Positions 6,975 through 9,046 of a stretch of DNA of 11,779 bases are shown here, in pieces. The translations under genes and the position numbers were made by a program. The stretch's first letter is position 1. Each line of letters starts with the position of its first letter. A model generated the notes under the pieces. It ran no database searches and was not told the origin of the DNA. It was given only the letters and a program-made list of their open reading frames with translations. The stretch is taken from contig JALGVI010000087.1 in the NCBI GenBank assembly GCA_029838215.1, forward strand, positions 1 through 11,779. Reading direction: 5' to 3'. The DNA comes from Candidatus Helarchaeota archaeon (GTDB lineage: Archaea > Asgardarchaeota > Lokiarchaeia > Helarchaeales > RDOG01).

Positions 6975-7955
6975 ATGCAGTTCGTATATGACTCGGCTTT
7001 ATTGGCTTACATGTTATCTGCAATAATAATTCCTGTCGAGCTCACGATTTTCTATTTTGTACTTGGCAAAGATTACAAGTCCATCGAATTCAAAGTAACT
7101 GTCGGATTTGTCACGTCATCAGTAATCTTTATTATCTGCATGGCATTCTCGATGGGAACAATGCAAGGACATCCTATCGGGAGCTTGATTACAGCACCAA
7201 TTTTAGCTGTAGGTCCTTTTGTGATAATGTACGTATTGGTTAAAGCCGTTAGAAGAGAACGATTGCGGTTAGAAAAAGTTTTGGAAAATAGCACGGAAGT
7301 TAGTATTAATGTTTCCAACATGGCAACGGAGTTGGCTGCAAGTGCGAGCGAAGTGAACGCATCCGCTGAAGAAATATCTGCAACCACGCAAGAAGTTTCA
7401 TCCAGTTCACAAAATCAAGTAAAAAAATTGGAATCAATAAACACGACATCGTCCAAGATCGAGGAATTATCGAGACGAATAAAATCATCCAGTGATCAAA
7501 TCCGTAACGTCATGGATATCATCGTGAACATCGCTGACCAAACGAATCTACTTGCGTTGAATGCTAGCATTGAAGCGGGTCGGGCGGGAGAACACGGACG
7601 GGGTTTTTCCGTTGTTGCTGACGAAGTCCGAAAGCTGGCGGAAGAATCTAAAGCCGCAATTGGAAATTCAAACGAAAAAATCCAATCAATAATTAATGAA
7701 ATAGGCAAAAGCATGGAATTATTCGTTACGATTGCAACGGATATAAAAGAAGCTTTAAAAGCAAGTGAAGATACATCCATTGCGATGGAAGAGATCAGTT
7801 CTTCTGCAGAACAACAAACGGCATCAATGGAAGAAATCTCCGCAACGGCTAACAGGCTTGGAGAATTAGCAGAAAGATTGAAAGTTAGCTTGGCGGAAAA
7901 CATCCCGGATTCCGCAAAGAAAAAAGACTTGGAAGCATTCACGGGAAAAAATTAA
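6975..7955 (+). CDS. Methyl-accepting chemotaxis protein (3 N-terminal TM helices, short signalling hairpin)
   Basis: [40 protein letters not shown] hairpin tip. Methylation-type repeats SAEEISA and [14 protein letters not shown]. Confidence 0.95.
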
Positions 7956-9046
7956 AGACCAGAAATCGTGAGGATAAAATCCTCCAAAATATCTAAACAA
8001 GCCCTGCAATCATGATGACAGGTAACTTGATTTCTTCCGCAAGATTCGATGCAATGAAAGTCTTCGATATTCTTGACGGCATATAAAAGAAGATTGCCAA
8101 CAATACAATTAAAACGATTTTTGTTAGGGAATCGCGTCATTTTTAAGAGCTCAATGCCCTCACGTATCTTTTCTTCGGTGCCTAAGTACAATGGCACTCC
8201 GACGTCCATCTCGTTTTTCTTGAAATTGAGATCCTTTGGTGGCATCAAACCGACCATTGATGATTTAGAATGTTTTTTCGTGAAAAGTTGTGCATCGTGA
8301 AATACATTTTCGACAATGGAGTGTTCTTTGACTTTTTCATCCCCCCACCAGCCGGGAAAATAGGTAGAATAAATTCTTAGCCTGTAAATATCTTCAAGTT
8401 TTTTTCCTCTTGCGATTAATTTTCTCATTCGCTGCCCAAGTCGGAAGTTATTGGATTTTTGAGGATAGCTTTCCAAATATCTAAGATATAATTCTCCATA
8501 TCTCCTGCAATTAATCTGTATAGTTTCATCCACTCGTGGTTCGTGAGTGAAATGGAGATGAATGTTTCTATCACGTATTCCCCACCAGTTTAGGAGACGT
8601 TTATTGATCTCCATGGTCCTTCTTGCAATTTCAATTGTTTCATCGAGAAACTCCTGATTCTCGCCCGTGAGATCGGCTAACAATGTCGAGAATTCCTTAG
8701 TTTCAAGACAAACATGGACTTGACCTTTCGATGCGGTCGCCACCAATAACACGTTTTGGATTGTCGGTTGTCGGTCCAAAATAGCTTGAACATCAATGTT
8801 TTTGCTCTTGAGTAGATTGATATCCACAGTTGGCAATAAACAAGGACCAGTTGTTTTATGTTCATAAGTCGGTCCATTTATTCCTGCAACGAGATTCCTC
8901 TGCAAATAAAAAATAACATCGTCATGATCAGCCCAATCAAGACCGATTTCTTTCAACTGGAACTTCTCACGTAGAAAAACGCGATACGAATTGGAATAAA
9001 TCTTGTCCAAAACGTTCTCTAATCGATCAAAAGTTAGCTGAGTCAT
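7952..9046 (-). CDS. Divergent class Ic aminoacyl-tRNA synthetase-like protein (TrpRS-like paralog), degenerate HIGH/KMSKS, Cys-rich C-terminal domain
   Basis: By-eye colinearity with Trp[18 protein letters not shown] (~FLACGIDPEKSVIF), ENVFH (~DQVYH), NEMDV at the KMSKS position, [17 protein letters not shown], and C-x21-C-x6-C-x3-C. ATG 9046 chosen from TATA spacing; the track starts at TTG 9061. Its stop overlaps the MCP stop convergently (TTAA). Confidence 0.55.

Follow-up and report, generated by a model that had tools for sequence, protein, structure and literature searches.

We found that the gene at 7952..9046 on the minus strand of the window (the whole stretch of DNA analysed, 11,779 nt) encodes a TrpRS paralogue that is predicted to keep the TrpRS fold, including both the N-terminal extension of archaeal/eukaryotic enzymes and the anticodon-binding domain. 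Unlike archaeal TrpRS, the protein has no HIGH, KMSKS or GxDQ motif, shows no significant sequence similarity to these enzymes, and appears to carry acidic residues at the phosphate-binding positions. On the strength of its predicted structure and of weak colinear motifs, we regard it as a full-length structural descendant of an archaeal-type, Fe-S-motif TrpRS. Our leading reading, which draws on the model and on analogy and to which we give a probability of roughly 40%, is that the paralogue has lost the activation of Trp with ATP and would instead perform ATP-independent chemistry on the aminoacyl end of tRNA. More broadly, as far as function can be read from the model, the paralogue probably has a new function that involves tRNA or amino acids.

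Gene, family and predicted fold

The coding sequence and the promoter-like element upstream of it are located as follows.

7952..9046, minus strand: coding sequence of the 364-residue TrpRS-fold paralogue; the stop codon is at 7952-7954
9070..9077, minus strand: TTTATAAA, an archaeal TATA-box-like element read from the sequence, with its centre some 28 nt before the ATG

Read from a TTG start, the open reading frame spans 7952..9061 on the minus strand, and the ATG at 9046 gives a protein of 364 residues. In the alignment, the N-termini of the homologues start at the position of this ATG. The TTTATAAA box suggests that the gene has its own promoter and may be transcribed as a leaderless or short-leader mRNA. 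At the 3' end, the coding sequence overlaps by 4 bp with the 3' end of a convergent gene for an MCP-domain protein (6975-7955, plus strand). No tRNA or Rfam RNA was found in the window, and a search of sequencing runs returned only small DNA shares, in one marine and one hydrothermal-vent metagenome, with no RNA run listed.

About 20 homologues are known, every one of them named "hypothetical protein". The core group, at 57-65% identity, comes from MAGs of Lokiarchaeota and Helarchaeota, and distant homologues occur in Aenigmarchaeota and in the cultured Methanococcus aeolicus (WP_011973482.1); some of the distant members are acidic overall, with a pI of 4.6-6. All homologues, from four archaeal lineages, are intact full-length ORFs. 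An alignment of 12 sequences (34-65% identity) has 50 invariant columns, and one of 19 sequences, with identities down to 23%, has 12. Judged by this conservation, the paralogue is a real, constrained protein. Whereas TrpRS is universal, the paralogue is sporadic: of 400 genomes sampled from the phylum, just one has the gene, a genome of the same family that is 94% complete lacks it, and a search of 185,579 species-representative genomes for two peptide patterns of the family confirmed no relatives. Such a distribution fits an accessory role better than a role in core translation.

Pfam, NCBIfam and PADLOC scans gave no family match for either the protein or the family alignment, leaving the family unannotated and without a Pfam or NCBIfam model, and phmmer and hmmsearch against the PDB gave no sequence match for the protein or the alignment. 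The profile PF00579 (tRNA-synt_1b) matched neither the protein nor any of 12 homologues, and the CDPS profile PF16715 likewise had no match. When hhalign was used to compare the family with the archaeal TrpRS profile, the probability was 0.6%, which is not significant, and relaxed settings yielded only weak colinear segments.

The first-pass annotation, made by eye, had described a colinear likeness to class Ic synthetases; this likeness is invisible to Pfam, NCBIfam and PDB profiles and to hhalign but emerges from structural comparison. The AlphaFold2 model (m53b69182f805; pLDDT 88.3, pTM 0.89) had TrpRS of A. pernix (3a05) as its top structural match, with Z 19.9 over 299 residues and an rmsd of 3.4 Å. 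Z-scores to archaeal/eukaryotic-type TrpRS were 19.9, 19.6 and 17.9, covering model residues 7-364, compared to 13-16 for TyrRS, 11-14 for bacterial TrpRS and 6.4-8.4 for CDPS. BshC and MshC were also among the structural matches (Z 7.1-7.5), and PvcA had Z 5.5. An earlier, weaker model of the paralogue gave an identical ranking. Furthermore, Foldseek returned 65 PDB matches at E<1e-3, with a top E of 9.5e-7, and the best 50 of these 65 were all TrpRS or TyrRS. In the ESM Atlas an archaeal TrpRS cluster was matched with a TM of 0.68, and weak language-model features point toward DIT1/PvcA and CDPS clusters. Together, the structural comparison of the model, Foldseek and the ESM Atlas gave a strong full-length match to class Ic aminoacyl-tRNA synthetases, with archaeal-type TrpRS the best; the first-pass annotation had named the lack of any such match as evidence against its reading.

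All class Ic alignments reach residue 364, whereas the CDPS alignments mostly end near residue 270. Beyond that point lies the following domain.

7955..8191, minus strand: C-terminal helical domain, residues 286-364, aligned to the TrpRS/TyrRS anticodon-binding domain in all class Ic matches

Compared with A. pernix TrpRS (3a04/3a05) and with the genome's own TrpRS, the modelled paralogue is thus alike over the whole chain, with the N-terminal extension, a five-strand Rossmann core and the C-terminal helical domain, and its length is also similar (364 residues compared to 368 in archaeal TrpRS).

Active-site positions and C-terminal cysteines

The elements around the former active site are given here in the order of the protein chain.

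8840..8854, minus strand: T65-T66-G67-P68-C69, where Rossmann strand β1 ends, with the loop that follows (alignment and model)
8813..8824, minus strand: D75-I76-N77-L78, start of the post-β1 helix, HIGH position (inferred register)
8753..8770, minus strand: Q93-P94-T95-I96-Q97-N98, family-specific motif between the HIGH-position helix and β2
8690..8725, minus strand: G108 to F119, strand β2 (QVHVCL) followed by E115-T116-K-E118
8297..8311, minus strand: E246-N247-V-F-H250, end of strand β4, GxDQ-motif position
8201..8218, minus strand: K277-N-E279-M280-D281-V282, loop after β5, KMSKS position

We searched for the three catalytic signatures with regular expressions. HIGH-like strings were present in 0/19 family members compared to 20/20 archaeal TrpRS, KMSKS-like strings in 1/19 members (not the window protein) compared to 20/20, and GxDQ in 1/19 members, again not the window protein, compared to 20/20. 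The loss of these signatures holds across the family (n=19). The positions given earlier for the two replacement motifs were exact, NEMDV being residues 278-282 (8201-8215) and ENVFH residues 246-250 (8297-8311).

The putative correspondences of C69 to Ser37 of AlbC, of D75 to the first His of HIGH and of E279 to the first Lys of KMSKS were derived from the order of the secondary-structure elements, from where alignments start and end, and from the spacing of motifs. The register at the HIGH position was set from secondary structure and from four bacterial TrpRS alignments, in which model residue 61 is paired at the outset with chain residues 0-7. A different placement of HIGH, at H111, follows from the second half of the weak N-terminal segment of hhalign; it was rejected because it clashes with the confident strand 109-114 and leaves the Rossmann sheet one strand short.

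In the loop after β1, T66, G67, P68 and C69 are invariant in 19/19 members, and C69 lies two residues past the β1 glycine, which is the spacing of G35 and S37 in the cyclodipeptide synthase AlbC (PMC3105412). Position 75 is Asp or Glu in all family members, and I76 is invariant. Relative to TrpRS, about 14 residues are added between the HIGH-position helix and β2, in a segment that contains a QPTxQN motif, in which P94 and T95 are invariant in 19/19 members; both this extra segment and the invariant TTGPC loop set the paralogue apart from archaeal TrpRS. Other elements are colinear remnants shared with archaeal TrpRS, namely C-x4-E after β2 and (D/E)-(Q/N)-x-x-H after β4. The stretch GQVHVCL, which the first reading had taken for a Rossmann strand, corresponds to β2 (model strand 109-114), and the C-x4-E spacing that follows agrees with C107-x4-E112 of archaeal TrpRS. 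The proposed equivalence of ENVFH to DQxxH also holds, with a spacing equal to that of TrpRS D218-Q219-x-x-H222 and a conservative change from D-Q to E-N. M280 is invariant in 19/19 members and, when it is placed on the Met of the motif, the KMSKS lysines become Glu and Val. Altogether, the invariant residues near the old active site are T66-G67-P68-C69, Asp/Glu75, E115-T116, E246-N247 and M280.

The C-terminal domain carries a set of cysteines.

7997..8107, minus strand: C314-x21-C336-x6-C343-x3-C347-x2-C350, candidate [4Fe-4S] or metal site

C314, C336, C347 and C350 are each present in 15-17 of 19 members, and C343 is restricted to the 10 core members; several distant members without the Cys set still keep the conserved residues of the active-site elements. 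The spacing resembles that of the four C-terminal cysteines of archaeal TrpRS, which in the genome's own enzyme is C301-x23-C325-x6-C332-x2-C335. The [4Fe-4S] motif of T. maritima TrpRS (2g36) is C-x22-C-x6-C-x2-C (PMC2954223). A weak colinear hhalign segment (E 0.095) sets C314, C336 and C343 on C301, C325 and C332 of TrpRS; the last Cys spacing of the paralogue differs from the TrpRS [4Fe-4S] motif, and loop 338-346 has low model confidence.

Synthetases, tRNAs and gene neighbourhoods

A PF00579 search of the whole genome returned only a TyrRS (L001; HIAH, KMSKS) and a TrpRS (L002; HLGS, KMSKR), and these canonical genes lie on other contigs, C71 and C86. The first-pass annotation had advised looking for a separate canonical trpS; as one is present, the paralogue is not the only TrpRS of this genome. 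ARAGORN, run with introns, found one clear tRNA-Trp in the genome, on contig C75, with a CCA anticodon, A73 and a 63-nt intron. A second ARAGORN call of tRNA-Trp, on contig C89, was discarded, as it reads better as a tRNA-Arg (CCG) with a duplicated intron segment. No extra odd tRNA was found beside the paralogue gene.

Neither the window nor the surroundings of three core homologues contain a PF00579 gene, and no conserved operon or neighbour of the core Asgard family was found across the three core-homologue loci examined. The 568-residue NUDIX neighbour was considered as the partner of a divergent pair and dismissed, since the NUDIX gene is conserved beside no homologue and a similar-sized gene (L004) is unrelated. 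Elsewhere in the family, a distant member lies ahead of a racemase-like gene, an AlaX-like editing protein, TyrRS and TrpRS, all on its strand (L018/L019), a core member lies directly after a stand-alone ThrRS-editing-domain gene (L006), and HisRS lies 1.5 kb downstream of a family member (L009). About 3 of 10 contexts have such tRNA-related neighbours, an excess over chance that is no more than modest, above all where genomes are small. In Aenigmarchaeota, two members each show translational coupling to an M29-aminopeptidase/NicX-like protein; the two partners are homologous to each other (E 1e-24), and one of the two loci also carries a GNAT. A member other than these two precedes an Asp/Glu-racemase-like gene. 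With the Aenigmarchaeota partner as query, no M29/NicX-like partner was found in this genome, and the three core-family loci examined lack one as well.

Proposed chemistry and its alternatives

In synthetases, the triphosphate of ATP is clamped by the first His of HIGH and the first Lys of KMSKS. In the paralogue, both of these positions would now be carboxylates, and the adenosine/ribose and alpha-amino positions appear to be kept or conservatively changed (the β1 Gly, D-Q to E-N, the KMSKS Met and C-x4-E). This combination of acidic clamp residues with kept adenosine and alpha-amino positions suggests a pocket suited to an aminoacyl-adenosine, that is, to the 3' end of aminoacyl-tRNA, and not to ATP. 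The tRNA would dock via the retained anticodon-binding domain, Cys69 may, by analogy with Ser37 of CDPS, act as a nucleophile and form a thioester acyl-enzyme, and the aminoacyl group would then be transferred or hydrolysed. In AlbC, G35 superimposes on G34 of TyrRS, S37 is the acylated nucleophile and an S37C variant still makes the acyl-enzyme (PMC3105412), and both SbzA and AcmF are full-length synthetase-like enzymes that use aminoacyl-tRNA as donor (PMC12945691). A point against this reading is that the pair of carboxylates acquired beside the pocket could make binding of the RNA backbone less favourable. A bolder version, which we consider doubtful, is a new class of aminoacyl-tRNA-dependent enzymes in which an Fe-S anticodon domain reads a specific tRNA and the aminoacyl group passes onto the active-site Cys as a thioester, and from there to an unknown acceptor or to quality-control hydrolysis. 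If true, this would be a second, apparently CDPS-independent origin of class Ic acyl-enzyme chemistry on aminoacyl-tRNA, with anticodon specificity kept.

Retention of the full TrpRS architecture, with the anticodon-binding domain and its Cys set, alongside the loss of the catalytic signatures, would also be expected of a non-catalytic pseudoenzyme. Such a protein could bind tRNA or associate with TrpRS, as a regulator or chaperone, and either sense tRNA(Trp) or redox state through the kept anticodon-binding domain and a possible Fe-S site or heterodimerise with TrpRS; in the core family, no operon partner hints at a pathway. The same idea was proposed for the ORF1 proteins beside TrpRS-A (Mukai et al., 2017; PMC5370408). 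We hold this to be possible but rather unlikely: conservation among the 19 members clusters at TTGPC, E115-T116, E-N and M280 and not in the anticodon domain, and the retention of pocket residues by distant members without the Cys set is typical of a working pocket. That pocket might belong to a tRNA-free small-molecule enzyme that handles amino acids or nucleosides, possibly with a non-canonical ATP site as in MshC-/BshC-type ligases. The Aenigmarchaeota coupling to an M29/NicX-like protein, the GNAT in one of these loci and the racemase-like neighbour elsewhere point in this direction, as do the BshC and MshC matches and the weak language-model pointers to DIT1/PvcA and CDPS. However, the M29-like partner was found neither here nor in the three core-family loci, the kept anticodon-binding domain is left unexplained, and acids stand in place of the phosphate-clamping residues, which makes this explanation unlikely.

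It is very unlikely that the protein has remained an aminoacyl-tRNA synthetase (for Trp or some other substrate) whose signature motifs have diverged far. Although the architecture is that of a full synthetase and the E-N-x-x-H and C-x4-E spacings mimic contacts to amino acid and ribose, no member has a HIGH-like string, the charge appears to be reversed at both ATP motifs, canonical TrpRS and TyrRS are present in the genome, and the tRNA search gave a single clear tRNA-Trp and no unusual tRNA next to the gene. The very rare and patchy distribution might suggest a duplicate in decay (pseudogene) or an ORF called in error, but the ORFs are intact and full-length across archaeal lineages, with 50 invariant columns in the core alignment, the predicted fold is confident and compact, and the gene has its own TATA-like putative promoter. 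The pattern of sequence conservation effectively refutes this explanation.

ATP-independent chemistry on the aminoacyl end of tRNA, the reading we prefer, can be set against several known systems. The first-pass annotation had offered CDPS as the precedent, which is apt in that CDPS (AlbC, YvmC, Rv2275) and the paralogue both have a class Ic-derived Rossmann domain without HIGH or KMSKS, and Cys69, a putative counterpart of the nucleophile Ser37 of AlbC, likewise lies two positions past the β1/β3 glycine. The catalytic set of CDPS also includes Y178, E182 and Y202 (AlbC numbering), no counterparts of which were identified in the paralogue. The precedent falls short in that the paralogue is nearer to TrpRS (Z 20 compared to 8) and keeps the anticodon-binding domain. 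CDPS consist of a single Rossmann-type domain of about 220-300 residues without an anticodon-binding domain. Their matches to the model, at Z 6.4-8.4, cover mostly residues ~45-275, and of the two only the paralogue keeps an anticodon-binding domain and a connecting KMSKS loop.

SbzA (IleRS-like) and AcmF (AlaRS-like) likewise have a complete synthetase architecture, including a tRNA-binding domain, that is reused for aminoacyl transfer (PMC12945691). However, SbzA keeps HYGH, AMSKA and residual charging and sits in a biosynthetic cluster, whereas the paralogue is motif-less and stands alone. [quoted passage not shown] By this description the paralogue is set apart from ORF1, as such motifs are missing from it and no TrpRS lies next to its gene.

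Synthetase paralogues that abandoned ATP, such as CDPS and the SbzA/AcmF-type transferases, are a source of new tRNA-dependent biochemistry. Going by the model, the paralogue would be the closest structural copy we found of a complete TrpRS in which both ATP motifs are acidic and an invariant Cys stands where CDPS have their nucleophile. Should the paralogue act on charged tRNA, the kept anticodon-reading part could aim non-ribosomal aminoacyl chemistry, and Asgard archaea would have one more tRNA factor, linked to Fe-S. The Methanococcus aeolicus member, with its cultured host, is open to genetics and biochemistry.

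The TrpRS-like gene and its surroundings

The TrpRS-like paralogue lies on the minus strand in an open reading frame that spans 7952..9061 of the window when read from a TTG and has 364 residues when read from the ATG at 9046. Ten homologues start at the position aligned with this ATG, and a TTTATAAA box, read from the window sequence, is located at 9070-9077, about 28 nt upstream of it; the distance would be usual for an archaeal promoter and a leaderless or short-leader mRNA. Because of the homologue starts and the upstream box, the ATG at 9046 is a better start than the TTG. 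The database gene call (P0002, 352 aa) begins 12 codons downstream of this ATG.

Features of the window
1181-2437, minus strand: 418-aa multi-pass membrane protein with an N-terminal HAAS domain; its start is overlapped by the PadR gene
2434-2970, minus strand: PadR-family regulator with a C-terminal zinc ribbon
3482-4282, minus strand: DUF169 protein; overlaps the stop of the DUF6259/GH66-like gene
4279-5313, minus strand: DUF6259/GH66-like protein, middle of a run of three genes
5333-5788, minus strand: PCC-domain protein, first in this run
6975-7955, plus strand: MCP-signalling-domain membrane protein of an Asgard genome, 326 aa (PF00015, E 9e-37)
7952-9046, minus strand: TrpRS-like paralogue
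9288-10994, plus strand: 568-aa NUDIX protein (C-terminal NUDIX domain PF00293, E 1.7e-22)

The stop codon of the TrpRS-like gene shares 4 bp with the end of the convergent MCP-domain gene, the two lying tail to tail. The NUDIX protein carries an N-terminal region of ~370 aa without assignment and two predicted membrane helices at residues ~375-430, and its NUDIX part also matches the PADLOC candidate-defence model PDC-S07 (E 2e-9). The three-gene run at 3482-5788 (minus strand) could be a small operon, and 1181-2970 (minus strand) holds a PadR-HAAS sensor-type pair.

Fold and catalytic positions

Neither the single sequence nor a profile of the paralogue matched any entry in Pfam, NCBIfam or the PDB, and profile-profile comparison against 20 archaeal TrpRS sequences gave a probability of 0.6%. 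Under relaxed settings, two weak colinear segments were found against the archaeal TrpRS profile: an N-terminal one (pairwise E 0.006), which pairs F-Y-x-x-R-N-L-V-A-G with the archaeal/eukaryotic-TrpRS-specific R-R-G-I-I-F-x-H, and a C-terminal one (E 0.095), which pairs C314, C336 and C343 with TrpRS C301, C325 and C332. Both segments are leads only.

The predicted structure settles the question of fold in favour of TrpRS. An initial model built on 12 sequences was of middling quality (pLDDT 65), its top ranks already being TrpRS and TyrRS only; with distant members added, pLDDT rose to 88.3 and pTM to 0.89, and all five models reached at least 86. This model was searched against structure representatives.

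Structural ranking of the model by Z score
A. pernix TrpRS (3a05): 19.9 (rmsd 3.4 Å over 299 residues, model 7-364 on chain 6-355)
E. histolytica TrpRS homologue (3hzr): 19.6
Yeast TrpRS: 17.9
TyrRS: 12.6-16.4
Bacterial TrpRS: 11.2-13.7
Cyclodipeptide synthases (CDPS): 6.4-8.4, mostly inside model residues ~45-275
BshC and MshC: 7.5 and 7.1
PvcA: 5.5

Foldseek returned 65 PDB matches at E<1e-3, and each of the 50 listed was a TrpRS or TyrRS; the top ESM Atlas cluster was an archaeal TrpRS family (TM 0.68). The model strands (N-terminal 53-57, then 63-66, 109-114, 161-166, 241-247 and 261-267) follow the archaeal TrpRS plan. The structural matches therefore indicate a complete TrpRS shape that includes the N-terminal extension, the Rossmann core and, at the C-terminus, the anticodon-binding domain. 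This strong match to class I aaRS bears out the retained class Ic fold of TrpRS/TyrRS type that the first-pass annotation had proposed by eye.

Four bacterial TrpRS structures, whose chains open with β1, match the model from its residue 61 onwards (chain residues 0-7), so that β1 is placed at residues 63-66 and T66-G67 at the S-G of S-G-x-x-P-S-G. Judged by secondary-structure order, alignment end-points and spacing, the HIGH place would be D75-I76-N77-L78, with residue 75 Asp or Glu in 19/19 members. By the same reasoning, C113-x4-E118 after β2 probably corresponds to TrpRS C107-x4-E112, and E246-N247-x-x-H250 at the end of β4 to D218-Q219-x-x-H222; the post-β5 loop would read E-M-D-V against K-M-S-K of TrpRS if the invariant M280 is matched to the KMSKS Met. 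Regular expressions, which are independent of register, found HIGH-like strings in 0/19 family members, KMSKS-like strings in 1/19 (not the window protein) and GxDQ in 1/19, against 20/20 TrpRS in each case. The first-pass annotation had described the protein as lacking HIGH and KMSKS; this observation is confirmed, with exact coordinates for the ORF, NEMDV (residues 278-282, 8201-8215) and ENVFH (residues 246-250, 8297-8311), and its main interpretation, a TrpRS-like paralogue with lost catalytic motifs, is supported.

Distribution and genomic context of the family

A word-indexed search of 5.8 billion proteins recovered 12 relatives, and an exhaustive HMMER search of 1.84 billion cluster representatives gave only nine of them at E<1e-3; a profile search added none to these. 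The core group (n=10, 57-65% identity) stems from MAGs of Lokiarchaeota and Helarchaeota and from metagenomes, an intermediate group shows 34-38% identity, and distant members (23-26%) belong to Aenigmarchaeota and Methanococcus aeolicus. The protein of this cultured methanogen (WP_011973482.1) has 336 aa and an I-T-T-G-P-C motif, and is without the C-terminal Cys set. All named members are labelled "hypothetical protein". The gene is distributed very sporadically: of 400 genomes sampled from the phylum, the window's own was the only one to carry it, a same-family genome with 94% completeness lacked it, and scanning 185,579 species-representative genomes with two patterns confirmed no relative.

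Comparison of the window with three long contigs revealed no conserved neighbour in the core family, the flanking genes being different. The divergent NUDIX-domain membrane protein was not kept beside homologues, which ruled out a functional module of the two genes. The surroundings of distant members tell more. In two of their loci (L018 and L019) a TK0271-like regulator is followed on the same strand by the paralogue and then by genes for an amino-acid-racemase-like protein, an AlaX-like editing protein, TyrRS and TrpRS, in this order; in L018 (GCA_053529675.1, JAIYFP010000011.1, 7585-12522, plus strand) the paralogue is P0143, and the racemase-like gene is short (185 aa) and followed by a 43-aa ORF before the AlaX-like gene. 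In locus L006 a stand-alone ThrRS-editing-domain gene and a TusD/DsrE-like gene precede a core member. In two Aenigmarchaeota genomes (L009 8001-10015 and L010 1-1900) the paralogue overlaps the start of an M29-aminopeptidase/NicX-like gene by 4 nt; the partners are homologous (28% identity, E 1e-24), the pair is restricted to that branch, and HisRS follows in L009. In metagenome contigs related to the M. aeolicus protein (L012-L014), the member has a Band_7/NfeD pair on one side and a thioredoxin-reductase-like gene on the other. The contexts in L018/L019, L006 and L009/L010 hint at amino-acid chemistry and at the charging of tRNA or its quality control, but they make up only a minority of loci, and in small genomes such genes cluster anyway.

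In the 0.9-Mb Aenigmarchaeota genome with L009 (member P0018), the sole PF00579 match stayed below threshold (17 bits, a 570-aa frame at L017); the assembly may be incomplete, or else this genome has an unusual TrpRS and TyrRS.

Putative function

The paralogue is of the synthetase-derived kind. It shares the TrpRS fold but is not filed as a TrpRS because it fails the profile test and the three signature motifs. It resembles CDPS in its class Ic fold, the absence of ATP motifs and a putative nucleophile at Gly+2, but is not a member because it has no profile match, a far lower structural score and an anticodon-binding domain. "ORF1" is a class I aaRS-like unknown always found beside TrpRS-A genes (Mukai et al., 2017; PMC5370408); this adjacency was not seen for the window gene. 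SbzA and AcmF are full-length synthetase-like proteins that use charged tRNA as donor (PMC12945691). We found no published description of the family.

We favour, at a probability of roughly 0.4, an ATP-independent action on (aminoacyl-)tRNA in which C69 would serve as nucleophile. The gained T-T-G-P-C loop is invariant, and C69 is the second residue past the β1 glycine. In the CDPS AlbC, G35 superimposes on TyrRS G34 and S37, two residues on, is aminoacylated from aminoacyl-tRNA; an S37C variant still makes the covalent intermediate (PMC3105412). Furthermore, triphosphate-binding positions appear to have become carboxylates while adenosine, ribose and alpha-amino positions appear kept or conservatively changed, a pattern that seems meaningful and because of which the pocket may suit an aminoacyl-adenosine end better than ATP. 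A stricter form, with anticodon specificity retained and an Fe-S cluster, is rather doubtful. The retained anticodon-binding domain has C314-x21-C336-x6-C343-x3-C347-x2-C350, with four of these Cys occurring in 15-17 of the 19 members. In the TrpRS of the same genome the pattern is C-x23-C-x6-C-x2-C, and in that of T. maritima a [4Fe-4S] cluster adjoining the anticodon is bound via C-x22-C-x6-C-x2-C (PMC2954223). The spacing suggests, but does no more than suggest, a candidate [4Fe-4S] site. The inter-Cys loop is the model's only low-confidence part, as expected for a prediction with the cofactor missing.

A tRNA-binding pseudoenzyme devoid of catalysis is somewhat unlikely in our estimation, and a small-molecule enzyme acting independently of tRNA is less probable still. 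Decay of the gene is barely credible: 50 columns are invariant in the 12-sequence alignment and 12 in the 19-sequence alignment (G55, T66, G67, P68, C69, I76, P94, T95, E115, T116, M280 and Y287), so the paralogue is a constrained protein and not a decaying duplicate. That it is a cryptic synthetase is very improbable given the other TrpRS and TyrRS of the genome. Searched with PF00579, the assembly (3.6 Mb, 94% complete) yielded exactly two genes, a TyrRS on contig C86 (HIAH and KMSKS) and an archaeal TrpRS on contig C71 (HLGS and KMSKR), the latter closest to Helarchaeota and other archaeal TrpRS. The genome has no need of the paralogue as its TrpRS; on this point, as on the match to class I aaRS, the result favours the first-pass annotation. 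It has one clear tRNA-Trp, with a CCA anticodon, A73 and a 63-nt intron. A second ARAGORN tRNA-Trp (CCA) call on contig C89 (L021 204-325, minus strand) was rejected, its anticodon loop fitting CCG (tRNA-Arg) better; the intron of this tRNA gene holds a ~27-nt tandem duplication.
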